The translations under genes were made by a program, and so were the position numbers. Positions 2,965 through 64,000 of a stretch of DNA of 64,000 bases are shown one piece after another (the first letter of the stretch is position 1; each line of letters begins with the position of its first letter). The notes below the pieces were generated by a model. The model had not been told where the DNA came from, did no database searches, and saw nothing but the letters and a program-made list of their open reading frames with translations. Source of the DNA: Heterodontus francisci (Eukaryota); assembly GCF_036365525.1 (NCBI RefSeq), contig NC_090400.1:59425633-59489632 (forward strand). The letters are read 5' to 3'.

Positions 2965-4200
2965 ACCTGTGTCTTACCTGTCCTGGGAGTGTTTGATGGG
3001 GACAGTGTAGAGGGAGCTTTACTCTGTATCTAACCCCGTACTGTACCTGTCCTGGGAGTGTTTGATGGGGACAGTGTAGAGGGAGCTTTACTCTGTATCT
3101 AACCCGGTACTGTACCTGTCCTGGGAGTGTTTGATGGGGACAGTGTAGAGGGAGCTTTACTCTGTATCTAACCCCGTACTGTACCTGTCCTGGGAGTGTT
3201 TGATGGGGACAGTGTAGAGGGAGCTTTACTCTGTATCTAACCCGGTACTGTACCTGTCCTGGGAGTGTTTGATGGGGACAGTGTAGAGGGAGCTTTACTC
3301 TGTATCTAACCCCGTACTGTACCTGTCCTGGGAGTGTTTGATGGGGACAGTGTAGAGGGAGCTTTACTCTGTATCTAACCCCGTACTGTACCTGTCCTGG
3401 GAGTGTTTGATGGGGACAGTGTAGAGGGAGATTTACTCTGTATCTAACCCCATTTATTTTTCTTTTTTTATCACAATGTGTGAAATCAAACAACCCCATG
3501 TAAGGACAGCATAACCTATCTGATGAGAAAGCAATTGACTCTGCTCAGGAATTATGTTAGTCTCCCAGGAGCAGACCCTATCATCATATCATTACCCACG
3601 CCATTCTTGTTACCTCTCAAGCTGAAGCATTAAATTTGGTCTGACCAGGGAGTGCTGAATAGAGAACAGCAGAAAGAGCTTTACTCTGCAACAAATCTGT
3701 TTTTTTTTTAAATGTAGAAGGAGCTTTACTCTGTGCTGAGTAACCTTTTTTTTTCTTTCCAGGCTCCTTTTATATCTTTTATGTCGAGTGAGCCTTTATT
3801 CCTCAGGCCCCTGTTATATACGTATTTTTAAAATAACTTTATTAAAAACAGATAAATAAGCAAAAAAAATGCAACGAATCTGTGTTGTAACTGTTCTGGG
3901 AGTGTTAGGACAGTGTCGATGGAGCTTTACTCTGTATCTAAACCCGTTTTGTTTTGTCGACAGCTTTACTCTAACCCCTTTTTTTTTCTGTGTAATCTGA
4001 ATTTAGACAGTTTTACCCTGTATTTAACCCCGTGCTCTACCTGTCCTGGGAGTGTTTGATGGGGACAGTGTAAAGGGAGCTTTAAAATGAGAACAGAAAG
4101 TGCTGGAAATACTCAGCAGGTCTGGCCGCATCTGTGTAGAGAGGGATCTTTATCTAACCCTGTGCTCTACAAGCCCTGGAGTGTTTGATAGGACATTATA
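2965..4200 (-). repeat. 69-bp tandem repeat array: ~7 clean units to 3451, then degenerate units interrupted by A-tailed inserts
   Basis: Unit CTGTACCTGTCCTGGGAGTGTTTGATGGGGACAGTGTAGAGGGAGCTTTACTCTGTATCTAACCCCGTA. Confidence 0.95.
3775..3872 (-). mobile_element. 3'-UTR stub of the same Tx1 family
   Basis: Reverse complement matches 27450-27540 (TTATTTATCTG..GGGGCCTGAGGAATAAAGGC..TCGACATAA). Confidence 0.85.
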
Positions 4201-19580: not shown

Positions 19581-19875
19581 GGCGGTGCCGAGGGAGCGCC
19601 GCGCTGTCGGGGGGGGGGGGGGGCGGTGCCGAGGGAGCGCCGCGCTGTCGGGGGGGGGGGGGCGGTGCCGAGGGAGCGCCGCGCTGTCGGGGGGGGGGGG
19701 GGGGGCGGTGCCGAGGGAGCGCCGCGCTGTCGGGGGGGGGCGGTGCCGAGGGAGCGCCGCGCTGTCGGGGGGGGCGGTGCCGAGGGAGCGCCACGCTGTC
19801 GGGGGGGGCGGTGCCGAGGGAGCGCCGCGCTGTCGGGGGGGGCGGTGCCAAGGGAGCGCTGCACTGTCGGGGGGG
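19581..19875 (+). repeat. GC-rich minisatellite (8 units of GGCGGTGCCGAGGGAGCGCCGCGCTGTC + variable G-run)
   Basis: Direct tandem units, continuing into DeuSINE sequence. Confidence 0.92.
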
Positions 19876-21160: not shown

Positions 21161-21602
21161 GTTAGATACAGAGTAAAGCTCCCTCTACACTGTCCCATCA
21201 AACACTCCCAGGACAGGTACAGCACGGGGTTAGATACAGAGTAAAGCTCCCTCTACACTGTCCCCATCAAACACTCCCAGGACAGGTACAGTACGGGGTT
21301 AGATACAGAGTAAAGCTCCCTCTACACTGTCCCCATCAAACACTCCCAGGACAGGTACAGCACGGGGTTAGATACAGAGTAAAGCTCCCTCTACACTGTC
21401 CCCATCAAACACTCCCAGGACAGGTACAGCACGGGGTTAGATACAGAGTAAAGCTCCCTCTACACTGTCCCATCAAACACTCCCAGGACAGGTACAGCAC
21501 GGGGTTAGATACAGAGTAAAGCTCCCTCTACACTGTCCCCATCAAACACTCCCAGGACAGGTACAGCACGGGGTTAGATACAGAGTAAAGCTCCCTCTAC
21601 AC
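21161..21602 (+). repeat. 68/69-bp repeat array (~6.5 units) upstream of Tx1
   Basis: Same unit, opposite orientation to the 3 kb array. Confidence 0.95.
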
Positions 21603-21621
21603 AAGAGAAAAGGAAAAAAAA

Positions 21622-24600
21622 CGGGGGTTGGCTGCTCTCTGGGAATCCTGAGTGCCTCAACAAGATGCAGCTGACAGTGCTGCAGACAGTTGCTGGAGGT
21701 GCTGCTGGATAGGGAGAGCTGAGGAAAGAACTGCAACATTTTCAGCAACTTTTGCTGCAGAGGAGGAAAAGACTTTGGAATAAGGCTGTGTTTCAAGTTG
21801 GGTGTTGAGCACCAGACTTTTATTTCATTTGGACTGTTGTGGGAGGTAGAAGAGGCCGGAACAACAAGGGATGGGGACTGTACAATTCTACAGGGAGCTG
21901 TGCAATTGCATTGACTACACAAGGAAGCTCCCTCCCCACCCCTATAGCCCAGCCTGGGTCAGCTGAAGCTGCCTGGCTATAGAGACCGAAGGATCTAGCT
22001 AGTGCCTGGGCAGTTTTCGGCTGACCCAGATGAAGACCTCTCTCACAACCAGAAGACCAGGAGTGTTTACAGTGCTCTGTGTACCACCCTTCAAGGAAAA
22101 TAGCGTAGCAAAGTCATCGCTTGCAGCCTGTCTTTCCCCTTTCCTGTATACCCTCAGCCTCTCCCCAAACCTACTACTTGTTTGGACATTATTTCTTGGA
22201 AAATTTTGTTTTTGCCTGCAATTTGGTGGTGGGTTTGGCTCTTGAACCCGTGGCAAACCCATCATCACCGGTCGCAGTCCCGCTCAGTCTTTGGAAAAAC
22301 AGCCTCCGGTACGTCTATTCCTTCCACCACCAGCTATTTATGCAGCTGGCGCGGGAGGAGGTCACAGATGGCCATTTCATGATGGTCTACCGCGTCTTCT
22401 GGACCTCGGACGGGGTGCGGTGCCATGTCTGCAAGGGGAGGGGTACGTTAGTAAGAACTGCCCAAACCTCCCAGCTGCCAACTCCACCTCGATGGTCCAG
22501 GGTGGTGCCACTACACCACCTCCCATTCCCCCTACACCTTCAACAGACACCATTCTGTAGGTTCCAGAGGCTGTGGTTTTCACTGCCTCCGGCGGGGAGG
22601 GAAGTGCCCGTCCGAGTGGAAGGAGGACGCGGAAGAAAAATAGACCACAAGAGGCACGTCCCCTGGACACCATGGCACAGCCTGAGCTCAGCCCAAGGCC
22701 CGCTCCTGGGGAATCCACCTGCCCCAAGGCTGGGCTCAGGCCCAGGGTGACCGGGCAAAAGGATGGTGCAGAGGCCCCTGATGACATGAAGGTCTCTGAG
22801 CCTCCACGCCCCTCCCGAAATAAGAGGAGACGTCCCTGTTCTGAAGAAGGCCCTAAACCATGTGGTCCATCTCCTAGCATGGGTCCGCAACTCCCCTGCC
22901 ACCAGCACGAGCAGGGCCTCGAGCCCTGGGCGGGAACCCTCCACCTCTCGGAGCGGAGTGGGGGGGAGATGCCCCTGTAATCTTGTCAACTGGGGACCCG
23001 CCCTTGGTGGGGGGAGCTTGTGGACTCCACGGAAAAAATCATTCCTTTTGCCGATGGGTCGGGTGGCCTGGGTGGGGGTGAGACCTGTGAGGGTCTGCCC
23101 TCCCAGCAGCCTGACGCTACCGCCCAGGCTGTACCTGACCCGGAGGCCAATTTGTGTAATTCCCTGTCTGCTGGGTCTGTGGGCACTGATGGGGCAGGAG
23201 ATGGCATCCTTTCTCCGCCTCAGGTCCCAGCTCCGGCTGGATTTCCAGAGTCGGGTACTTCCATCTCCCCTGGACTGCTCATTGACCTGGGGACGGAAAT
23301 GGAGGGAGTTCCTGAACCGCTGGCGCCCATAGGCTCCAGTTCCATTCTAGAACCTAGAGAGGACTCTGCCATCGATCCTGGGGGTGGGAACGTGACGGAG
23401 GCGGGACCAGCTGGGGCGTCTGCCCACAGTGTGTGGTGGGTGTGTCAGCCGCTGGCGGTGACGACCCGGAGGAGGATGGGGACTCAGTGTGGGGCACGGA
23501 GGACGATCTTGATTCCATCGTCAGTGAGGTGGTGGAGTCCCTCGTGCCTCCCACCGAGTCTCCTTTCAAACCCACAGCAGAACTCCGGGATTTCCTCGTG
23601 GCATGCAGGGGTTGCCACAGTAAAGCTCAGCTGGCCCTCGACCGTTGGTCGAATCTGGCGCTGATCATCCAGTCCGTCCATGCCGCCCTCAAGGAAGCGG
23701 GCAAGGGTGCGGGCGTGAAACTGGTTGAGAGGCACTGATTTAGTGCGTTCCTCAATGGGTTGCTGGGGGGAGTGGAGGGCCAGGTGCACTTCCACTCCCT
23801 CCTCACAGTGAGGTGTTAGTGACGGTTTTTAAGTACCTTTGACGTGAAGATAACCATAGCCAGCCTCAACATCAATGGCAGCAGGGGGTCTCACCGCAGA
23901 TTTCACAATCTCTCAGTCCTCGGGGAAGGGAGATATGCAGTGAACTTTCTGCAGGAAATCCACACTGTTCCAGGAGATGAAGCCACCTGGCTCCTGGAGT
24001 GGCAGGGTAGGGTCTACATGAGTCACCTCACTCCGATTTCTAGTGGGATGGCTATCTTGTTGGCCCTGACTTTTCAGCCGGAGATCTTTGGGGTCAAGGA
24101 GCTCGTGCCGAGCGGCTTGCTCCACCTCGCCGTTCGCCTGGGTAGCGTGCCGCTCCACTTTGTGAACGTGTACATGCCCAGGTCCAGCGCGTTGCAAGCG
24201 CACTTCTTTGAAGAAGTGTCCACTCTCTTGAGCTCCATCGATAGCGGCGAGTGCATCATCCTTGGGGGAGATTTTAACTGTACCCTCGAGATGGGGGATT
24301 GTTCCGGTCCCCAGCGCGGCCAAGCGTTGGTGGAGAAGTTGAGGGAACTGATCAGCTCCCTTAGCGTGATGGACGTCTGGCGGAATCTCCATCCCGACTC
24401 CAGCGCCTTTACATGGAGGTCTGGAAGAGGAGGGTCCCGAATCGACCGCCTCTCCATTTTGCAGGCGCACGTCTCCCACGTCCTGGCAACCTCCATGTGG
24501 CTGGTGCCGTGCTCGGACCACCATTTGAAATGCGTGGCGTTTACTCCGCTCCGCACGCGGGCGGGGTCCGCATACTGGTACTTTAACAACCGGCTGCTGG

Positions 24601-27542
24601 AGGACGAGCGATTCTGGGACTCGTTCTTACGATGCTGGGCTGACTGGAGAAGGAAGCAGGGGGGCTTCCCCTCCTTGAGGCTATGGTAGGATGTTGGCAA
24701 GACTGACATCCGTGTCTTCTGTCAGGAGTGCACAAGGGGGTTGACCAAGAGGTGGGAGGCCGTGATCGGGCGCCCAGAGAGGGAGGTGCTTGACTTGGAG
24801 TCCCGCCTCAGTCATGCCGTCGCGGACCCGGCCCTGTGGCAGGCATATAAAGAGAAGAAGGGCATGCTGAGGGACCTGCAGCTCATAGGGTCCCGAGGCA
24901 CATACGTGAGGTCGTGGATCCAGATCCTGGAAGATTTGGACCGCGCCTCACCCTTCAACTCGCTGGAAACATGGCGGGGGGTCCGTGAGCAGCTCGTTGA
25001 GCTGCTGGACGACAACGGATTCTCCATCATGCATCCAGAGGGAATGGACCTCCTGGTCCGTACTTATTACAGTGCATTGTTCTCTCCGGATCCGTTCACG
25101 TTGGCGGAGCTGACCGGCGCCCTCCACCAGCTCTCGAGGGGCAAATCTCCGGGGCTGGAAGGGCTGACTGTGGAGTTCGTCAGGGCATTCTGGGACGTCC
25201 TGGGGGACGATTTGGCGTGGGTCCTGGGGGAACGAACGCCTGGCGCCCGGGGAGATGCCCCTCTCGTGGCGCAGGGCGGTCATCATCTTGCTGCCGAAGA
25301 GGGGTGATCTCCGCTTGCTTAAAAACTGGCGTTCGGTCTCCTACCTCAGTATGGATTATAAGATCTTTGCCCGGGCTATGTCTACCCGCCTGGGCTCTGT
25401 GCTGGCCCACATGATCCACCCCGACCAGTCCTACATGTTCCCGGGCTGGTCCATCAAGGACAACATTCACCTGGTCTGGGACGTGATCCATCTTTCTCGA
25501 TCAGGAGAAGGCGTTCGACAGGGAGAATCATGAATACCTTCTCGGGACTCTGCGCGCTTTCGGACTTGGGCAGCATTTTGTGGCCCGGGTCTGACTTTTA
25601 TACGCCGCCGCAGAGTATCTAGTCGAAGTTAACGGGTCCTTGATGGCGCCAATTTGCTTTGGGAGAGGAGTGTTTCAGGGGTGCGCCATATCCGGCCAAT
25701 CGTATACCATCTGCGTGGAGCTGTTCCTGTGCCTGCTTCGCAGGAGGTTGACTGGATTGGCTCTGCGCGAGCTGGCCATGCGGGTCATCCTCTCGGCTTA
25801 CGTAGATGACGTGCTCCTCGCAATCACAGATCCTGTTGACTTGTGGAGAATGCGCGACTGCTAGCAGACCTTTTCTTCTGCGTCCTCAGCGAGGATCAGT
25901 AGGGAGAAATGTTCTGGTCTCCTGGTGGGTCAGTGGCGGGTGCACTCCCTACTGGAGGGGTTAAGACGTTTTGCGTGGAACACCACGCACCTCCTCTATA
26001 TGAGAGTCCACCTTAGCCCTGCTGAGGAAGCCTGGCCGGCAAACTGGCAGGAGTTGGAGATGAAAGTCACCACTTGGCTGGGGAGCTGGACAGGACTGCT
26101 CTGAGTGCTTTACTACAGGGGCCGAGCGCTGGTCATAAACCAACTGATGGCCTCCATGCTGTGGTACCGGTTGGTCACTTTGGCCCCGCCCCCTGCATTG
26201 GCCACCAAGATCCAGAAGAAGCTCGTTAATTTCTTTTGGAGCAAGAGGAAACACTGGGTCTCTGCCGCAGTCCTGAGTCTCCCGGTTGAGGAGGGCGGCC
26301 AGTCGCTGGTGTGCGTCCGCACCCAGGCTGCAACTCTCAATCTTCGGACCCTGCAGAGATACCTGTACATCGAGTGTCCTCCCAGATGGTGTGCACTGGC
26401 GACTTATTTCTTCCACCAGTGTCACTGCCTTCAAGACGACACGCAGCTCGAGGCAGTGAACGTTAGCCGTGCCTCTCTGAGGCAGTTGCCTGCCTCTTAC
26501 TGGGATCTATTCTGGAGTCTGGAACATGGTCGCCTCCAGTCAGGGCGCTCCCCCGCCAGCGGAGGAGAGTGCCTCAGCTGTCCAGGTGGCTGGCTCCGGG
26601 GACGGACTGGCGGGCGGAGGAGTAGCCGAAGCCCCCGGAACGCCCCTCACTGTGGGTGACGAGGGGGCTCGGGAGCACAGAGTGCTCCCAGCCAAGCTGA
26701 CCCCCCGCTCGGCCGCAACTACTCTTTGGACTCAGGCCCTGAAACCCTCCTCTGAAGCCGGTCCCGTACAACCCGAACAGCCTCTCGGAAATGCCCTCCG
26801 TGCCGTTCCAAACAGCGCGGAGGGGTTTCCTGTACGGGCTGCTCCTGCACACTCTCCACTTCCTCGCCCTTGTCAGCCGGCTGGACATGCCCGGGGGTCC
26901 GTGTCACCATCTGGCGGCGAAGGGAAACCCTGATGGAGGTCTCTCTATGCGGGAGTCCTCCCCCTTTGCATCAGGGACCTGGGGTGGAGGGTGCTGCACG
27001 GTGCAGTCCAGGGCAATAGAATTTTAAGCAGGTTCATGGACTCCCAGGCCACCTGTAACTTCTGCGGCCTGGACGAGTCCGTGTTACATGTGTGTATGGA
27101 GCGTGTGTGGTTGCAGCCCCTCTTTGAGTATTTGAAGGGGCTGCACTCCAGCCCCACGCTCTTGATCTTTGGGCACCCGGTGCGGAGGGGCGTGGGCCGG
27201 GAGGAGGATCTCCTCGTTGGTCTGCTCCTGGGCCTGTCCAAGGTGGCAATTCACAGGACCAGGCTGCGGGGCCATCGTGGGGTATGACCTGCCTGTTTGC
27301 CTGCCCCTCTTCCGAGGTTACGTTCATGCCCAAGTGTCCCTGGAGAAGGAGCATGCGGTGTCCACTGGTACGCTTGAGTCCTTTCGCGACTGGTGGGCAC
27401 CGCAGGGACTGGAGTGCATAATTGACGCCGAGAAAGCAGTTTTAATTTGAGTTTTTGATTTATTTATCTGTTTAATAAATTTATTTAAAAATGTATATAA
27501 AGGGGGCCTGAGGAATAAAGGCCCCCTCGACATAAGAAAAAA
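21622..27542 (+). mobile_element. Near full-length decayed Tx1-clade non-LTR retrotransposon inserted in the 69-bp repeat
   Basis: ORF1 remnant with zinc knuckle CHVCKG..YVSKNC; ORF2 APE endonuclease from 23844 (SLNING, GGDFN, SRIDR, SDH), RT (KSPGLEG, DYKIFA, QEKAFD, AYVDD), C-terminal CNFC..H; stops and frameshifts; 3' UTR and A-tail. Confidence 0.92.
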
Positions 27543-28230
27543 CAGGGTTAGACACAGAGTAAAGCTCCCGCTACACTGTCCCCATCAAACACTCCCAGGA
27601 CAGGTACAGTACGGGGGTTAAATACAGAGTAAAGCTCCCTCTACACTGTCTCCAACAAACACTCCCAGAAAGAGAAAAAAAAAACGGGGTTAGATACAGA
27701 GTAAAGTTCCCTCTACACTGTCCCCATCAAACACTCCCAGGACAGGTACAGTACGGGGGTTAAATACAGAGTAAAGCTCCCTCTACACTGTCTCCAACAA
27801 ACACTCCCAGAAAGAGAAAAAAAAAACAGGGTTAGATACAGAGTAAAATTCCCTCTACACTGTCCCCATCAAACACTCCCAGGACAGGTACAGTACAGAG
27901 GTTAGATACAGAGAAAAAAAAACGGGATTAGATACAGAGTAAAGCTCCCTCTACACTGTCCCCCATCAAACACTCCCAGGGCAGGTACAGTACGGGGGTT
28001 AGATAAAGAGTAAAGCTCCCTCTACACTGTCCCCCATCAAACACTCCCAAGACAGGTAGAGTATGGGGGTTAGATACAGAGTAAAGCTCCCTCCACACTG
28101 TCCCCATCAAACACTCCCAGGACAGGTACAGCACAGGGTTAGATACAGAGTAAAGCTCCCTCTACACTGTCCCCCATCAAACACTAAAAAAAAAACGGGT
28201 TAGATACAGAGTAAAGCTCCCGCTACACTG
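27543..28230 (+). repeat. 69-bp repeat array downstream of Tx1 with four A-tract scars
   Basis: Units interrupted by A-tracts directly before C(G/A)GG..TTAGATAC. Confidence 0.95.
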
Positions 28231-28920
28231 CATAGCAGTTCCAACATGTGAAATTTTATTGAAATTGCTTTTCCCAGTCTGCAGTGCCTGTATGCAAGTG
28301 ATAACATTTTTTGGTGGGTGAATTAATAATGACTGATTGGGATTAGAGTTGTCTCATATGCTGGCCTGTATGATTGTGTTCATCAGGTACTCTCCGTAAA
28401 GCTAGTTATGTTGCCACCTTGAAATCCGTTTTTCTGATTAGTGTAGCTCCAGTTGCAAGTCTGGCTTTAGCTTCTAATAACATTAACCTGATCCCTAAAC
28501 CCCTCCGACTTACTGCAGCTCAGTCCCTAAATAGAACCATTGTCAGAGGTCGCAATTGATTGTATAATTTATATTTCATTGCACAGTGAACCAAATTTCC
28601 CTTGCATTTGCTATTAAGTGTGTATGGTTAGTCTGCTGGCTGTCTAATCTGAACTGCAGTGAGCTGGGATTGTAGTTCCCAGTGGGAATCAGCACACTGC
28701 ATTGCCCTGAATCTGATACTGAATCACTAACTTGTTCAGAAAGCATTCATGATGGGTCATGAAAATGTCACCCAGGAGCAGTAATAGTGCTTTTCAAGGT
28801 TAGGGTTGGGCCTCATTAAGATCGCGTAGAGTTCTCCCAACTCTATCTAACCCGTGCTGTGCCTACCCTGGGAGTGTTTGGAGACAGTGTAGAGGGAGCT
28901 TTATTCTGTATCTAACCCTG

Positions 28921-29290
<370 letters not shown>

Positions 29291-29449
29291 TTACTCTGTA
29301 TCTAACCCTGTGCTGTACCTGTCCTGGGAGTGTTTGATGGGGACAGTGTAGAGGGAGCTTTACTCTGTATCTAATCCCCGTGCTGTACCTGTCCTGGGAG
29401 TGTTTGATGGGGACAGTGTAGCGGGAGCTTAGCTCTGTATCTAACCCCG

Positions 29450-29739
29450 TTTTTTTTTAACTTTGCAAAACCTAGCTTTATTTGTCGTGTAGATACACCG
29501 ACAGTTTATGCAGTGCTGGAGGAAGCCATTGCGGCGCGTCTGGGCTTCGGGGTGGTCCCTTCACGGAATCCATTCCTGAATCTGCGATACACCACCTTCA
29601 GGTGCCTCATGCGGCCTGTACCAGTTGTGTTTCTCCTTTTGGCTTTAGTACTCCAGTTGTACTTCCTCTTTCTCTCGGCAGGGTAGGCATATTTACCACA
29701 GGTCGATTTCTGCAGGTGAAATGCTTTGGCCCCACACCG
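29450..29739 (-). pseudogene. RPL37: 5'-truncated processed pseudogene of 60S ribosomal protein L37 (eL37)
   Basis: Minus strand reads [77 protein letters not shown]; intronless, AATAAA 29477-82, A-tail. Confidence 0.96.
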
Positions 29740-31354
29740 TGCTGTACCTGTCCTGGGGAGTGTTTGATGGGGACAGTGTAGAGGGAGCTTAACTCTCTAT
29801 CTAACCCAGTGCTGTACCTGTCCTGGGAGTGGGAATTTCAGTGGGCAAAATATGCCTATTTAAGGAAAGAATTATATTTCACCGTGAGAAAATGTTATCT
29901 AGTCTTGAATGTAAGCCTGAATGTGTTTCCCAGGATTTCCACAGTGCCTTTTCCTGACTCTCCTGAAAGGGAGAGCTTGGCCTGGCACTACTTTCGGCAA
30001 AATATCTAAACCTGCAGTAGACAGGCCTCTGGTCCTGAAAGCGAAGATCTGGATTTATATGGGACCTTAACCCAAAACAATCCAAACCTTGTTGGATGGA
30101 GAATTCCTTTGCTCTGTGGTCACTGTTATGTAAGTGAGATCCCACAAACAGCAACACATCAGTTGATCTCTTTTGCTCTTCCTTGGTGATGTGGTTGAGG
30201 GACAAATATTTGGGTAGTGGGAGAACTCCCTACTTCTCTTTGAATCATGTCACATAATCTTTACTTCCCACTGACGGATCCTGGATTTACTGTCCAATCT
30301 GAAGGATGATTGGAGTTCTTTGGGTACAGTGTTTTTCCGTGAATTCAGTAGCTATAAATATTTCCTTTGTACCTGGTTGACCTTGCAGTATCGCGATGCT
30401 GTCACAAACTCCTGCAGCTTAAGGATCACTCCTTACGACCAGCTGTGCACCGACCATATTCCAATACTGTGGAATCCCACTGGATTATAAGTACTTTCTG
30501 CTTTCCGAGTCGCTTATCTTTTCTTTCTCACCTGATGGCACCCTGCCGTTGCTGGGGTGCCTTTTCATGGGGACCAGCCCTGACCCAAGAGGCTATTCTT
30601 TGGATCTAGCTGTTGAAGCTCAGTCCAGTGCTATCTTGCCCAGTGCTTCCACTTGCATGCACCGGTGCTTGCCCAAAGATTGAACTTTCTGATGTATTTT
30701 GATGTGGGTAATGTATTTACTGAGGCTTTGGGGAAGTTGGCTATATAATATTGATATCTTGCAGGTTATGAGCAGCTCCTGCTGGCTAGCTAACGTCAAC
30801 CATGGATTTGGGGGCAGCGCTCTCTTTCCCGTCTGTCAGAAGCCCCACTCCAGAGACTTGAGTACATAAGCCAGGTTGACACTCCCAGCACCAGTACTGA
30901 GGGACTGCTGCATTATAGGAGGCACTGTCCTTAGGATGAGATGTTAAACCGAGATCCCGTCTGCCCTGTCAGTTGGAAATAAAAATAAATTCTGTGGCAG
31001 CATTTAAAGAATAGGGGAGTTCTTCCTGGTGTCCTGACCAATGTTTATCCAACAACCAAAATCACAAACAGATAATCTGGTCATTATCACATTGGTGTTC
31101 ATGGGAGCTTGCTGTGCACAAATTGGTTGCCACATTTCCTAATTACAACAGTGATTTCAAAAAGTACTTCATTTGCTGTAAAGCACTTTGGGACATTCTG
31201 AAATAGCAAAAGACGCTACAGAAATAAGAGTTATTTTTTTCTTTAGCCCAATGCAAAATATCAGTCTTGTTGCGTGGTCTATTGACCTCTGAATGTTTCT
31301 GTACAAGGCAGTGGTGTGTGTGCTGGGGAGCCCAGGAATCTTAAGTCAAAGTAG

Positions 31355-40045: not shown

Positions 40046-40705
40046 AGACCTGTCCCCACCAGTACTGTACCCCAGTCTTGTACAGTGACAGACCTGTCCC
40101 CACCAGTACTGTACCCCAGTCTTGTACAGTGACAGACCTGTCCCCACCAGTACTGTACCCCAGTCTTGTACAGTGACAGACCTGTCCCCACCAGTACTGT
40201 ACCCCAGTGTTATACAGTGACAGACCTGTCCCCACCAGTACTGTACCAGTGTTATACAGTGACAGACCTGTCCCCACCAGTACTGTACCCCAGTGTTATA
40301 CAGTGACAGACCTGTCCCCACCAGTACTGTACCCCAGTGTTATACAGTCAGACCTGTCCCCACCAGTACTGTACCCCAGTGTTACAGTGACAGACCTGTC
40401 CCCACCAGTACTGTACCCCAGTGTTATACAGTGACAGACCTGTCCCCACCAGTACTGTACCCCAGTCTTGTACAGTGACACCTGTCCCCACCAGTACTGT
40501 ACCCCAGTGTTATACAGTGACAGACCTGTCCCCACCAGTACTGTACCAGTGTTATACAGTGACAGACCTGTCCCCACCAGTACTGTACCCCAGTGTTATA
40601 CAGTGACAGACCTGTCCCCACCAGTACTGTACCCCAGTGTTATGCAGTGAAGCACCTGTCCTCACCGGTAGTGTACCCATTTTGCAGTAACCGACCTGTC
40701 CCCCA
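40046..40705 (+). repeat. 44-bp minisatellite (~14 units) in PITP intron 6
   Basis: Unit GACAGACCTGTCCCCACCAGTACTGTACCCCAGTGTTATACAGT. Confidence 0.95.
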
Positions 40706-43629: not shown

Positions 43630-44008
43630 TGTTAGATGCAGAGTAAAGCTCCCACTACACTGTTCCCATCAAATACTCCCAGGACATGTACAGCACGGGG
43701 TTGGATGCAGAGTGGAACTCCCTCTGCACTGTCCCCATCAAACACTCCCAGGACGGGTATAGCACGGGGGTTAAATACAGAGTAAAGCTCCCTCTACACT
43801 GTCCCCATCAAACACTCCCAGGACAGGTACAGCACTGGGTTAGATACAGAGTAAAGCTCCCTCTACACTGTCCCCATCAAACACTCCCAGGACAGGTACA
43901 GCACGGGGGTTAGATACAGAATAAAGCTCCCTCTACACTGTCCCCATCAAACACTCCCAGGACAGGTACAGCACGGGGTTAGATACAGAGTAAAGCTCCC
44001 TCTACACT
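43630..44008 (+). repeat. Uninterrupted 69-bp repeat array (~5.5 units) in PITP intron 8
   Basis: Same unit, no inserts. Confidence 0.93.
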
Positions 44009-49429: not shown

Positions 49430-52400
49430 TGCTGACCACAAGAGGAACTTGGAGTGGGAGGGGGAGGATCCAGTTGTCGTGGTCCACGTAGGTACCAACG
49501 ACATAGATAGGACTAGGAAAGAGGTTCTGTTGAGGGTCTATGAGCAGCTTGGGGCTAAATTAAAAAGCAGAACCTCAAAGGTAATACTGTCTGGATTACT
49601 ACCTGAGCCATGTGCAAATTGGCATAGGGTAAATAGATTAGAGAGGTAAACGTGACGCTCAAAGATTGTTGTAGGAGAAATGGGTTCCAATTCATGGAGC
49701 ACTGGCACCAGTACTGGGGAAGGAGAGAACTGTTCTGTTGGGACGGGCTTCATTTGAACCATGCTGGGGCCAGTGTCCTGGCGAATCATATAACTAGGGT
49801 TGTAGATAAAGCTTTAAACTAAATAGTGAGGGGGAGGGTTCAATTGAAGGGAAGTTTATAAAATCAAAAAGAAACGAGAGAGCAGAGGTGCAGGGTAGTG
49901 ACGAGGCGAACGTTAATCAAAGTGTGACAGGAAGGGGCAGAAAATATAAGCAGAAGAGTGCAGCAGAAATCAGAACCAGGATGAGTAATAATGGTAAAAA
50001 GTCAAAGCTTCAGGCTCTTTATCTGAATGCACGCAGCATTTGTAACTGGATAGATGAGTTGACAGCACAAATAGAAATAAATGAATATGACTTGATAGCT
50101 ATTACAGAGATGTGGTTGCAGGGTGACCAAGACTGGGAACTCAATATTCCAGGGTATTCGACGTTCTGGAAAAATAAACAAAAAGGAAAAGGAGGTGGGG
50201 TAGCTTTGTTAATAAAGGAAGGTATCAGTGTGTTGGTGAGTAGTGATATAGGTGCAATAGATTGTGATGTGGAATCAATTTGGGTGAAAATAAGGAATAG
50301 CATGGGGGTGGTAGTCACAGGTGGGAGTGGTCTATAGGTCCCTGAAGTGTTGCCTTTCTGTAGGATAAAGTATAAATCAGAAAATAACGGAAGCGTGTAA
50401 GAAGGGCACTACAATTGTCATGGGTGATTTTAATCTGCATATAGACTCGACAATCAGATTGGCAGAGGTAACATGGAAGACAAATTTGTAGAGTGCATCA
50501 GGGATCGTTACTTAGAGCAATACGTTGCAGAACCTACCCAGGAAACAAGCTATTTTAGATCTAGTAGTGTGTAATGAGGTCGGATTAATAAGAGATATCG
50601 TAGTTAAGGATCCTCTAGGTGGTAGCAATCACAACATAGTAGAATATCAAATTCAGTTTGAGGGCGAGCAACTCTGGTCTTAAACCAGTGTCTTCAACTT
50701 AAACAAGGGCAATTACAAAGGTATGAAGAAAGAGTTGTCTAAAGTGGGCTGGGAAAATAGACTAAGGGGAAGGTCAGTGGATGAGCAGTGGCAGACAGTT
50801 AAGCAGATATTTCATAAAGCTCAGCAAAAATTTATCCTGGTCAAAAAGAAGCACTCAATGAGAAGGATGAACCACCCGTGGTTAACAAAGGCGGTCAAGG
50901 AGAGTATCCAATCAAAAACTAAGGCATACAAAGCAGCGAAAACTAGTGGTAGGCCAGAGGATTGGGAATTTTTTAGGAACCAGTAGCGGATGACTAAAAA
51001 GCTAATAAAGAGGGAGAAAATTGATTATGAAAATAAATTGGCAAGAAATATAAAAACAAACAGCAAGAACTTCTACGGGTATATAAAAAGAGAGTAGTTA
51101 AAGTGAGCGTGGGACCCTTGGAGGATGTGACTAGAGAATTGGTAATGGGGAACAGGGAAATGGCAGATAATTTAAACCAATATTTTCCATCAGTCTTCAC
51201 GGTGGAGGACACTATAAACATCCCACATATATCAGATAAGCAAGGAGCTAATGGGAGGAAAGATCTTGTAACAGTCTCTGTCACGAGGGACAAAGTATTT
51301 GACAAACTAATGGGACTAAAGGCAGACAAGTCGCCAGGACCTGATGGCCTACATCCAAGGGTTTTAAAGGAAGTGGCTGCAGAGATAGTGGAGGCATTGG
51401 TCGAAATATTCCAGAACTCACTGGATTCCGGGAGGGTCCCAGCGGATTGGAAAACCGCTAATGTGACACCCCTGTTCAGGAAGGGAGGGAGACTAAAAGC
51501 AGGAAACTATAGGCCAGTCAGCCTAGCATCGGTCGTTGAGAAAATGCTAGAGTCCATTATTAAGGAAAAAATAGCAGGACATTTCGAAAAGCTTAACGCA
51601 ATCGAACAGAGTCAACATGGTTTTGTGAAAGGGAAATCATGTTTGACAAATTTGCTAGAGTTCTTTGAGGATATAACAAGCAGAGTTGATAAAGGGGAAT
51701 CGGTAGATGTCGTGTATTTAGATTTCCAGAAGGCATTCGATAAGGTGCCACATAAAAGATTATTGCGCAAGATGGGAGTTCACGGTATTGGGGGTAATGT
51801 ATTAGCATGGATTGAGGATTGATTAACTCACAGAAGACAGAGTCGGGATTAATGGATCTTTTTCAGGTTGGAAAGATGTAACTAGTGGAGTGCCACAAGG
51901 ATCAGTCCTCGGGCCTCAATTATTTACTATCTATATTAATGACTTGGAGGAGGGGGCAGAGTGTAATATATCCAAATTTGCTGACGATACAAAAATAGGT
52001 GGAAGGGCATGTTGTGATGAGGACATAAGGAATCTGCAAGGGGATATAGATAGGTTGAGTAAGTGGGCAAAAACTTGGCTGATGGAGTTTAATGTAGGAA
52101 AGTGTGAGGTCATGCACTTTGGTAGGAAGAATCAAAAGGCAGACTATTATTTAAATGGAGAGAGACTTCAAATAAGTGCAGCACAGAGGGATCTGGGTGT
52201 TCTTGTGCATAAAACGCAAACAGCATGCAGGTGCAGCAAGTAACTAAGAAGGCAAATGGAATTTTGGCCTTTATTGCTAAGGGGTTGGAGTTTGAAAATA
52301 GGGAAGTCTTGTTACAACTGTACAAGGGTGTTGGTGAGGCTGCACCTGGAGTACTGTGTACAGTTTTAGTCCCCGTATTTATGGAAGGATATACTGGCAT

Positions 52401-53149: not shown

Positions 53150-53767
53150 TCAGCACCTTCAGGAGCTGTCCCCCAGTGAGAGTCAGCACCTTCAGGAACT
53201 GTCCCCCAGTGAGAGTCAGCACCTTCAGGAACTGTCCCCCAGTGAGAGTCAGCACCTTCAGGAACTGTCCCCCAGTGAGAGTCAGCACCTTCAGGAACTG
53301 TCCCCCAGTGAGAGTCAGCACCTTCAGGAACTGTCCCCCAGTGAGAGTCAGCACCTTCAGGAATTGTCCCCCAGTGAGAGTCAGCACCTTCAGGAGCTGT
53401 CCCCCAGTGAGAATCAGCACCTTCAGGAACTGTCCCCCAGTGAGAGTCAGCACCTTCAGGAGCTGTCCCCCAGTGAGAGTCAGCACCTTCAGGAACTGTC
53501 CCCCAGTGAGAGTCAGCACCTTCAGGAACTGTCCCCCAGTGAGAGTCAGCACCTTCAGGAACTGTCCCCCAGTGAGAGTCAGCACCTTCAGGAACTGTCC
53601 CTCAGTGAGAGTCAGCACCTTCAGGAACTGTCCCCCAGTGAGAGTCAGCACCTTCAGGAGCTGTCCCCCAGTGAGAGTCAGCACCTTCAGGAACTGTCCC
53701 TCAGTGAGAGTCAGCACCTTCAGGAACTGTCCCTCAGTGAGAGTCAGCACCTTCAGGAGCTGTCCCC
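53150..53767 (+). repeat. 33-bp minisatellite (~18-19 units)
   Basis: Unit CAGCACCTTCAGGAACTGTCCCCCAGTGAGAGT. Confidence 0.96.
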
Positions 53768-59133: not shown

Positions 59134-59268
59134 GTGTCAATTTCTTGCTACTTTGTGTCAATTTCTTGCTACTTTGTGTCAATTTCTTGCTACTCTGTGT
59201 CAATTTCTTGCTACTTTGTGTCAATTTCTTGCTACTTTGTGTCAATGTCTTGCTACTTTGTGTCAATC
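59134..59268 (+). repeat. 21-bp minisatellite (~6 units)
   Basis: Unit TGTGTCAATTTCTTGCTACTT. Confidence 0.93.
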
Positions 59269-61499: not shown

Positions 61500-61670
61500 C
61501 ATCAAACACTCCTGTGCTGTACCTGCCCTGAGGTTAGATACAGAGTAAAGTTCCCTCTACACTGTCCCCATCAAACACTCCCAGGACAGGTACAGTACGG
61601 GGTTAGATACAGAGTAAAGCTCCCTCTACACTGTCCCCATCAAACACTCCCAGGACAGGTACAGCACGGG
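61500..61670 (+). repeat. Short 69-bp repeat array preceding the second Tx1
   Basis: About 2 units plus a rearranged fragment. Confidence 0.9.
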
Positions 61671-64000
61671 ATTGGCTGGGCAATTTGGAGCACTTCCTGC
61701 CAGCAATCAGGGGGCGCGGCTGCATCTGTGCTGCAGCAACTGGAGAGTGGAGAGTGGAGAGTGGAGACTGGAAACTGCAGCAACTGGGGAGAGAGACTGG
61801 AGAAAGGTGAATACAGAGTGGAGACTGCAGCAACTGGGGAGAGGAGAGTGGAATAACTGCAAAGAGGTGACTGTAGAGTGGAGACAGCTGCATTTACTGA
61901 GGAACTGTTGCACTTTTTCAAGGATTAAGAAGACCTGCAAGTCATTTTGGAGAGGTGGGTGTTGGAGCACCAGAGAACTGTTGGTTGTTTGGACTGTTGG
62001 GGGAGGGAGGAGGCACCGGAAGATCCAGGGGTGGGGCTGCCAAATTCGATAGGGCGCCCTTGTATTTGGTCTTGTGTTTATCTGCCATCCTGCACAAAAG
62101 GGGCTCCCTCCCCACCCCCAACTATGTGGCTCGGGACGGCTGGAGCTGCCCGGCTGAAGACTATCTTTATACAACAACAGAAAAGGGAGAGAACCGGACG
62201 GCTCTAGCCGACCCGGGCGAAGAGCCCTCCCCTAACTGGGAGATTGAACTGTAGACTCTGCAGGAAGGTGCTCCAACCACCAAGTGAACTGTAACATCCT
62301 CGCAGCTGTTCTCTCTCTTCCATCACTCGGCCACCTATCCTCTCCTCTCCTTGTCCTTTTCAGCCCTATCCTCCTCTACTCCCATCCCCCCCTCCCCCAT
62401 CATATTGTTTGTGTTTAAGAAAACTGTCGTGTGCTTTGTTTCTTGGGGGTGGGCGTAGCTCTGCGACCCCATGGCAAGCCCCTCTTCGCCGGTGGCGGGG
62501 CCTTCCCATTCATATGCTGCTGCGGCTGCTGCAGCTGCACCTGTTGCCCCGTCACCGTTTGCTTTATTAACATCAAAGCATGGGGTCAAAAGCTACGTCC
62601 ACCCGAACATGACTATCGAGGCATATGTGAAAGCAATGGCCGAGGTTGTCGGCCCTTCGGCCATTGTTGCAGCCTCTAAAATGTATGGGAAGGCAGTGTT
62701 TTTCCTGAAGACCGAGCGGGCGGTGTCCCTGGCTCTGAGCAAGGGGCTCACCGTGGGCGGGACCTTTCTGCCAGTGGACCCCCTGGAGGCCACTACGCAA
62801 AGGCTCATTCTATCCAATGTCCCGCCCTTCATTCCTGGTGAGCTCCTCCTTCCCCACCTGCACCATCTGGGGGAGGTAAAGATGGGACTCACCCCAGTCC
62901 CGCTCGGTCTTCGGGAGAACAGCCTCCGACACGTGTACTCCTTCCGCCGCCAGTTATTCATGCAGCTGGCGAGGGAGGAGGTTACAGAGGGCCACATTAA
63001 TGTCGAGTTCCAGGGGACGGCCTACCGCGTCTTCTGGACCTTGGACGGGGTGCGGTGCCATGTCTGTAAGGGGGTGGGGCATGTTCGTAAGAACTGCCCC
63101 AACCTCCCGGCTGCCAACTCCAACTCGGCGCACCAGGGTGGCGCCGCTGCACCTCCTCCCACCCCCCCCTACACCTCCACCAGATACCATTCAGTCGGTA
63201 CCGGAGGCTGTGGTTTTCACGGCCTCCGGCAGGGAGGGGGGTGACCGTCCAAGTGGAAGGAAGGCGCGGAGGAGGAATAAACATCAAGAGGCGCGTCCCC
63301 TGGACACCGTGACACTACCCGAGCCTGAGCTCAGCACAAAGCCCGATCTCGGGGAGTCAACTTGCCCCAGGGCTGGGCTCAGGCCCAGGGTGAATAAGAA
63401 AAAAGAGAGTGCGGAGGCCTCTGATGACATGGAGGTCTCTGAGCCTCTGCGCCCTGGTGGGAAAAAGAGGAGAAGGCACCCCTCCACAGAGGTAATCAGG
63501 GGCCCTGAGGCGCAGGGCCCATCTGTTGGAGGGGAGCTGTCTCCTGTCTCGGGTCCCCAGGTTTCCCCTACCGCCACCACCAAGGCTACAAAGTCCGGGC
63601 AGGAGCACCCTATTCCTCAGGATGGAGTGGAGGGGAAGGCCCCGGTACATGAGGCCCCTCCTGAAGGAGTAAGTGGGGCCCTGCTTGTGGTGGGGGAGCC
63701 TGGGGGCTCCGCCCATTCTGCCACTGCTACTGGTTCGGGTGCCCTGAGTGAAGGGGAGGGCGAGGCCCCAGAGGGTCGGCCCTCCCAGCCGGAGTCCACC
63801 ACCAACCAAGAGACACCCGACCCGGTTAGAACCGAAAATGCTGCCCCATCTGCTGGGCCTGTGGGTGCTGGCGGAGCAGGAGATGGCCTCCTCTCTCCGC
63901 CTCCAGTCTCGGCTCCGGCTGGTTTTCCGGAGTCGGGAACTTCTGTCTCCCCTGGACCACTCATTGGCCTGGGGACGGAGGTGGAGGGGGGTCCTGAACC
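61671..64000 (+). mobile_element. Second Tx1-clade LINE (5' UTR + ORF1 from 62471), cut by the window end
   Basis: Starts right after CAGCACGGG of the 69-bp repeat; ORF1 has an intact CX2CX4HX4C knuckle (CHVCKGVGHVRKNC); homologous to 22250-23315. Confidence 0.9.

Follow-up and report, generated by a model that had tools for sequence, protein, structure and literature searches.

A 64,000-nucleotide stretch of the Heterodontus francisci genome (assembly GCF_036365525.1, contig NC_090400.1, positions 59,425,633 to 59,489,632), hereafter the window, contains two long copies of a Tx1-clade long interspersed nuclear element (LINE) and arrays of a 69-bp tandem repeat. The original prediction, made from this sequence alone, described the elements as a family specific for a 69-bp satellite. 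Analysis of the window and the genome indicates that this Tx1L-related LINE family and the repeat probably form a self-feeding cycle, in which the element prefers to insert at the boundary between repeat units and pieces of the repeat are planted at new sites inside its insertions. The 69-bp unit has the form CGGGGTTAGATAC...CAGGTACAGCA and occurs in the window as 12 short stretches on both strands.

The unit boundary is supported as the preferred insertion site. A motif from the element's 5′ end gives 652 matches in the genome, and among the first 100 listed, a unit end precedes 89, an A-run plus C/T-GGG precedes 11 and unrelated DNA precedes none. The boundary site CAGC^ACGGGGTTAG or its regenerated form is present at all 100 listed 5′ ends, some of which are short carried stubs and not full elements (as at locus L231, below). 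The element's own 5′ end, C[T/G]GGGATTGGC, resembles the right half of the target site, and a full-length insertion therefore regenerates the target and allows insertions to stack. At the other end of the element, the 30 best-scoring 3′ ends (classed by eye, one being the window copy) are followed by a unit start in 20 cases, by another Tx1 start in five and by unrelated DNA in five. An exact 36-mer of the repeat occurs 15,073 times in 6.0 Gb, or about 0.02% of the genome by exact matches, yet a unit or Tx1 start follows 25 of these 30 ends, so the association is more than chance. Truncated or internally deleted copies with repeat upstream supply 22 junctions, located at unit positions 1-16 (15 junctions), 63-69 (six) and 37 (one), which places 21 of the 22 within -6 to +16 of the unit boundary. 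The unit variant CAGTAC is found at 116 of 256 array junctions versus 3 of 89 junctions before 5′ ends, a scarcity that a preference of the enzyme would explain, as would transport of the last unit along with the element.

The strongest evidence for targeting is provided by retrocopies of the host genes RPL37 and RPL37A, because an mRNA cannot bring the repeat along. Processed pseudogenes of both are stacked in one small window array, at the Tx1 site. A genome search with RPL37 gives 20 matches, of which four are exons of the source gene or a duplicate and 16 are processed copies; five of these 16, including the window's own, are at the Tx1 site, and the remaining 11, at least one of which has a 15-bp duplication, are off target. 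Additional retrocopies at the Tx1 site are seen at L102:1995 (minus strand, after an array) and in L043, upstream of a Tx1 5′ end; judging by translated motifs, one may be RPS26 and the other an A-tailed histone H2B end.

Site choice was further evaluated on contig C1 (288 Mb), using an interior sample of every distinct listed 3′ end in positional order (n=30) and a subtelomeric sample of 34 ends in 30 regions, which does not include about ten of the listed ends. In the interior sample, the repeat is present before the 5′ end of none of the 30 copies and after the 3′ end of 12 (automatic classification) to 16 (by eye). For the subtelomeric ends, the 5′ junction lies past the stretch in 15, and seven (automatic) to nine (by eye) of the other 19 are on target; these are the only on-target insertions among all 49 C1 copies with a visible 5′ junction. 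The family is target-preferring, not target-specific, and strict site specificity of the Tx1L or Keno type is not seen. The predicted specificity is accordingly retained as a preferred site at the unit boundary, and the absence of Tx1 sequence outside arrays, noted with that prediction, holds within the window and fails genome-wide, as the interior copies demonstrate.

Many off-target insertions carry target-site duplications. Duplications scoring at least 9 were found for 16 of the 30 interior copies versus 0 of 124 mismatched control pairs. Across the 24 duplication-defined off-target sites, which include motif-picked loci introduced below, duplication length ranges from 9 to 17 bp with a mode of 14 (11 sites), and on-target events extend from the loss of a few bases to the duplication of 16; the target duplication, expected to be only very short, is thus not uniformly so. 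C-A(1-3) is located ahead of the duplication core at 19 of the 24 sites, against a background of 10.6% (P about 1e-14), GCA(1-3) is located there at eight, and the L1-type TTAA at none of the 24. The sites look like a relaxed version of CAGC^A, and we infer that one enzyme makes both on- and off-target insertions. The nick proposed in the original prediction was correct to within one base, the off-target duplications placing it one base further left, at CAGC^ACGGGG.

An alternative is that the Tx1 enzyme is responsible for targeting, but that read-through RNAs are seeded off target in trans by a promiscuous L1-type element. Such help in trans could account for the size distribution on C1, where the 30 interior copies all measure less than 1.3 kb and the ~20 Mb nearest the chromosome end contain clusters of long copies and arrays, and for the 11 off-target RPL37 retrocopies. 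We nevertheless regard it as unlikely, given off-target sites that resemble relaxed CAGC^A and not TT^AAAA.

Most of the duplication-defined off-target insertions have the structure of 3′ transductions, in which the transduced sequence is the target repeat. In ten of the 16 interior insertions with a duplication, the duplication encloses, within unrelated DNA, the Tx1 end, an A-tail, repeat sequence and a second A-tail, and the carried repeat extends from 9 bp to ~3.5 units, starting at the target's first base. An A-run/repeat motif was used to select 20 further interior loci from eight contigs, and 18 of these are independent; L222, L223 and L224 (contig C3, 182-186 Mb) are a single insertion in triplicate via segmental duplication and were counted once. 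Eight of the 18 have the same enclosure, one is on target, five have a junction out of range and four are without assignment. In total, a repeat flank is found between two A-tails inside one duplication in 18 of the 24 duplication-defined off-target insertions (eight motif-picked). Carried segments sometimes include nested A-runs, a piece of a short interspersed nuclear element (SINE) or the next element's first bases (L161, L164, L180). Two further loci carry planted repeat in other forms. At L231, a 15-bp duplication surrounds ~1.6 units, ~95 bases of Tx1 5′ untranslated region (UTR) and an A-tail without an element body, and the locus is thus a complete target planted alone. At L126, a 12-bp duplication surrounds a whole array holding a Tx1 stub and a full-length copy, consistent with a seed later used as target. 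Read-through RNA would thus plant the repeat at new sites, and the presence of repeat downstream of a copy is no evidence of targeting.

Arrays contain comparable junctions. The sequence before 44 A-run/target junctions in arrays is a partial unit in 27 (seven of which are one higher-order repeat), Tx1 in 12 (three of which also have a partial unit before the A-run) and the ends of other RNAs in five. Since 27 of the 44 follow a partial unit, on-target events probably also add repeat sequence. Higher-order tandem repeats that include a partial 69-mer and its A-run are present at L087:1500-2396 and at window positions 27537-27917, with periods of ~92 and 142 bp, and point to DNA-level amplification after retroposition. 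The variant polyadenylation signal AGTAAA in the unit was considered as the cause of the second A-tail and is not supported, as tails are spread over the unit and cluster at positions 9-12, before the signal; the first tally of A-runs was made by crude matching and serves as an indication only.

That the element is strictly specific for a host satellite which existed beforehand and independently, as originally envisaged, is now distinctly improbable. This reading would agree with the 100 of 100 listed 5′ ends at the site, with a repeat near-identical in four organisms, the element's 5′ UTR and most of open reading frame (ORF) 1 being missing from three of them at 80% likeness, and with the scarcity of retroposition marks in most subtelomeric arrays. 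Its strict form is contradicted by repeat pieces within duplications in unrelated DNA at 18 loci, and the absence of upstream repeat from all 30 interior copies and the short, dispersed arrays also argue against it. Because pieces of the repeat move within Tx1 insertions, the repeat is not simply an independent satellite. The two findings named beforehand as fatal to the prediction, unrelated flanks around most copies and a repeat that is part of the element's UTRs, have each proved half true.

Slightly less credible again is a scheme in which short SINE-like repeat RNAs start at CGGGG and the reverse transcriptase (RT) jumps to the A-tail of Tx1 RNA, producing two tails without read-through. 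Carried pieces that start at one constant base would be explained, as would L231, where repeat RNA was retroposed without a Tx1 body, and end-to-end jumping is described for R2 (cited in PMC4494074). However, solo insertions beginning exactly at CGGGG should then be common and are found at 0 of 18 interior loci (only six of them picked without an upstream A-run being required), L231 and L126 begin within a unit, and carried segments contain nested A-runs, a SINE fragment or the next element's start, like source arrays. That the repeat is merely the element's own UTR monomer, with random insertion, can be set aside, since the biased unit end before 5′ ends (CAGTAC, as if copied along) is outweighed by many 3′ ends without repeat and by truncated copies and host mRNA retrocopies with repeat on both sides and the junction at one site, RPL37 and RPL37A contradicting it directly.

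In the self-feeding cycle that we favor, the process would begin with the endonuclease nicking preferentially at the unit boundary, a role assigned to the enzyme from the observed insertion pattern. Reverse transcription would then be primed on an A-tailed RNA, which may be the element's own, a host mRNA or an RNA containing the repeat. Each full-length insertion restores the target through the element's 5′ end, and the resulting stacks are observed directly. To judge from DNA structure, transcripts would often pass the element's A-tail into the downstream array before gaining a new A-tail, and would sometimes reach the first 20-100 bases of the next element. A read-through RNA inserted at a loose match (mostly C^A) would plant from 9 bp to several units, including whole target sites, and the expected structure is seen at 18 loci as well as at L126 and L231. 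On target, the same RNA would probably extend the array with partial units and A-runs. Slippage or unequal exchange at the DNA level may then homogenize and lengthen arrays, as the higher-order repeats suggest.

Several observations weigh against this cycle. The mechanism accounts for the repeat copies examined in chromosome interiors and is not shown for most subtelomeric arrays. Among 20 Tx1-free arrays of at least 100 bp in the window and subtelomeric C1, none has a flanking duplication of at least 9 bp, and an A-run is present at the end of only 3 of 38 arrays; most subtelomeric arrays are for these reasons considered to be without retroposition marks. No duplication was called for 14 of the 30 interior copies, the duplication finder scores up on leading A's and duplications shorter than 9 bp are uncallable, and the interior sample consists of one contig plus motif-picked loci. 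The source locus of one transduced unique 30-base tag was not found among the 40 of 290 candidates that were scored. In addition, intact 5′ ends are always at the site and short copies mostly elsewhere, a contrast for which the cycle does not account.

The Tx1-free subtelomeric arrays may be old eroded seeds or products of recombination or repair; by eye, their edges are frequently more decayed than their middles. Arrays range from 0.5 to ~17 units and are short and scattered (unplaced contigs left out), and a flank shared among them was not seen by eye, no dedicated inverted-repeat search having been made. Fourteen runs of four organisms contain the repeat at 93-100% of sampled words. When one run per organism was aligned with a full-length locus, coverage of the repeat was deep in all four and ORF2 was matched at a likeness of at least 80%, but just one of them spanned the 5′ UTR together with the whole of ORF1; this comparison was made with contigs and is hence a hint only. 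On these grounds, the repeat seems older and more conserved than this Tx1 subfamily, and the other organisms seem to carry Tx1 relatives too. A more far-reaching proposal, possible although on balance not favored, is that the 69-bp repeat is a parasite-built niche and not a host satellite: it would serve as landing pad and upstream transcription start, would have been spread genome-wide by read-through RNAs and kept near-identical across species by endonuclease selection, and would also act as a sink for host mRNA retrocopies near chromosome ends.

The family is a bona fide member of the Tx1 clade of non-LTR (long terminal repeat) retrotransposons. The open ORF2 frame of the copy in L112 (P0001) contains an apurinic/apyrimidinic (AP) endonuclease domain (PF03372, residues 13-233) before the RT domain (PF00078, 518-769). 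Its best full-length named match is Xenopus laevis Tx1L (UniRef YTX2_X..., P0002), with 49% identity over 98%, comprising 49% in the endonuclease and 65% in the RT part. The nearest named protein carries a Heterodontus francisci label and matches 28% of ORF2 at 92% identity, and the identity to a ray protein is 74%. In an RT tree of 20 rows, among which Keno, Mutsu, Dewa, Kibi and Koshi are not identifiable, the query groups with ray, sturgeon, turtle and Xenopus Tx1 in a seven-row clade at 100/100. Open ORF1 frames of 683 codons are present in L121 and L128, each with one CX2CX4HX4C motif (CCHC knuckle), and the first 257 residues of ORF1 have no Pfam match. The A-tail, 5′ truncation and target-site duplication typical of the clade are all present.

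A strong hairpin (z -4.9), found one to three times per copy, closes the 3′ UTR, and the hairpin motif has 3,739 exact matches genome-wide. Of the first 100 listed matches to the 3′ motif on C1, 58 fall between 5 and 20 Mb and the other 42 between 42 and 274 Mb, which indicates a concentration of the family near a chromosome end; tandem repeats generally increase at shark chromosome ends (bioRxiv 2022.10.17.512540). At least three distinct 5′ UTRs share only their first 10-11 bases, C[T/G]GG[G/A]TTGGCT (L008, L026, L030, L084, L091, L134, window 21622), which suggests that the 5′ UTR has been repeatedly replaced behind a conserved target mimic. Rfam gives no match near the gathering score at either 5′ end, no hepatitis delta virus-like or hammerhead ribozyme was found at the 5′ junction or in the unit, and neither the unit nor the 5′ end folds better than its shuffles. 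An R2-like ribozyme-processed 5′ end or a known RNA family was rejected on this basis. A-tails are often interspersed with single G's or GGGG, and at times the two tails of an insertion share one such pattern (L010, L012, L018, L218, L229 and others).

The features of the window are collected in Table 1. The description of a Tx1-clade copy between 69-bp arrays, with an A-tail followed by CAGGGTTAGA where the array restarts, is borne out at 21622-27542. This copy is not complete as had been stated: its first ~125 ORF1 codons have no alignment, and its ORF2 is broken into six tblastn pieces in three frames with a ~70-bp gap. Placement of both long copies directly after the repeat applies to copy 2 (from 61667), whereas a partial unit followed by an A-rich tail (21603-21621) lies ahead of copy 1. 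For this reason, since no intact unit precedes the copy, the CGGGGG at its start is most likely the element's own target-like start. The A-rich tail itself would derive from a repeat RNA that was retroposed earlier into the 5′ junction of copy 1, and would represent its 3′ end. Two of the four interruptions in the downstream array are part of a 142-bp DNA-level duplication. Copies 1 and 2 represent two subfamilies because their 5′ UTRs differ; they are 72% alike over the common part of ORF1. Copy 2 has TTGGCTG at 61672, is 94% identical to the copy in L112 and has an ORF1 from 62471 with a CX2CX4HX4C knuckle. Its continuation (L113) ends within ORF2 and is followed by unrelated sequence, the 3′ end being absent from the 7 kb fetched. 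The 3′ stub shares the orientation of the degenerate unit fragments that surround it (minus strand), and lies ~260-300 bp from the regular array at 2975-3451, not within it. The window has no further Tx1 match beyond copies 1 and 2 and this stub.

Table 1. Repeat arrays, Tx1 copies and retrocopies in the window
Feature	Position	Strand	Details
Array, 6.9 units	2975..3451	-	Begins after an A-rich tail
Tx1 3′ stub	3759..3867	-	Amid degenerate unit fragments
Array upstream of copy 1, 6.4 units	21161..21602	+	Last unit partial
A-rich tail	21603..21621	+	Behind partial unit; adjoins 5′ junction of copy 1
Tx1-clade LINE copy 1	21622..27533	+	Degenerate; target-like start CGGGGGTTGGCTG
Copy 1 ORF1 remnant	22275..23800	+	Frameshifted; 5′ part missing
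Copy 1 ORF2 remnant	23823..27486	+	AP endonuclease and RT; stops and frameshifts
Copy 1 3′ UTR hairpin	27501..27527	+	z -4.9; 1-3 tandem copies in other elements
Copy 1 A-tail	27534..27542	+	CAGGGTTAGA comes next
Array downstream of copy 1	27543..28230	+	Four 'partial unit + A-run' interruptions, each restarting at C(A/G)GGG
Short array downstream of RPL37A retrocopy	28841..28920	-	
RPL37A processed pseudogene	28921..29257	-	5′-truncated; A-tail then CAGGGTTAG; repeat on both sides
Array between RPL37A and RPL37 retrocopies	29258..29449	-	2.8 units
RPL37 processed pseudogene	29450..29736	-	5′-truncated; insertion at CAGCA/CGG; A-tail then CGGGGTTAG
Repeat units upstream of RPL37 retrocopy	29737..29831	-	
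Array, 5.4 units	43631..44008	+	No insertion, A-tail or flanking duplication
Two units upstream of copy 2	61532..61666	+	
Tx1 copy 2	61667..64000	+	Other 5′ UTR subfamily than copy 1; continues past window end

An 18-bp inverted unit piece is present at 61513-61530 in the array ahead of copy 2, and a similar inversion is found at L092:3024-3070. Other minisatellites of the window (19581-19875, 40046-40703, 53150-53767 and 59134-59267, with 34, 44, 33 and 21 bp units) show no kinship with the 69-mer by BLAST. RT fragments of another LINE type, which we take to be CR1-like, are located at 1058-2002 and 51145-51822.

Preference for a particular target is typical of the Tx1 clade, and a range of targets is known. 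Mutsu inserts into 5S ribosomal DNA (rDNA) and Dewa into tRNA spacers, and Tx1L targets an internal tandem repeat of Tx1D. PMC4494074 describes Tx1L with its target Tx1D, Keno with U2 genes, Kibi and Koshi with microsatellites and crocodilian families with DNA and LTR transposons, and the legend to Figure 3 of that 2015 phylogeny also names satellites, U5 and 5S as Tx1 targets. Because satellites are already named there, the claim of a further target class is weakened; the families marked 'Sat' in that figure share a satellite target class with the shark family, a comparison made by legend only. Tx1L, whose sequence-specific endonuclease has been described (PMC1950540, PMC6719617), resembles the shark family in having a specific endonuclease and a repeated non-gene target (PMC1950540). 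It differs in that its target lies within Tx1D, a non-autonomous piggyBac element (PMC4494074), whereas the shark arrays have no common flanks and pieces of the target are spread by retroposition. Crocodilian Tx1-Mar and SINEU share with the shark family a preferred repeated target, tandem insertions, trans-mobilized RNAs at the same site and possible co-transcription with the target (PMC4494074). In contrast, the Tx1-Mar target is a DNA transposon spreading by its own means, and the crocodilian passengers are SINEs derived from small nuclear RNA (snRNA), unlike the ordinary mRNAs and target repeat carried in the shark (PMC4494074). The 3′ transductions of L1, R1Bm and R7Ag likewise place a read-through flank between two A-tails in one duplication, and R1Bm is reported to need downstream target sequence in its RNA for accurate initiation (PMC7265360). 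The difference is that the transduced flank in the shark is the insertion target itself, planted genome-wide; new target loci are not described in the excerpt of PMC7265360. No shark Tx1 with such a target and no LINE spreading its own target turned up in a search of literature listings, whose coverage did not extend to subscription journals, Repbase or Dfam.

Taken by itself, the target class is a modest addition, and the seeding of the target is the notable part. What copies share at their 3′ flank can be cargo instead of target, a point that bears on how target specificity is called from genomes. The open ORF2 of L112 appears to belong to machinery that delivers unrelated A-tailed RNAs to a defined site, and alongside the 49%-identical Tx1L it offers a test case for site choice by AP endonucleases. 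Site-specific LINEs are usually regarded as bound by a fixed host target such as rDNA, snRNA genes, telomeres or another transposon. By copying its target to new places, an element would escape this limit, and such seeding would provide a concrete way for retrotransposition to give rise to a dispersed family of tandem repeats.

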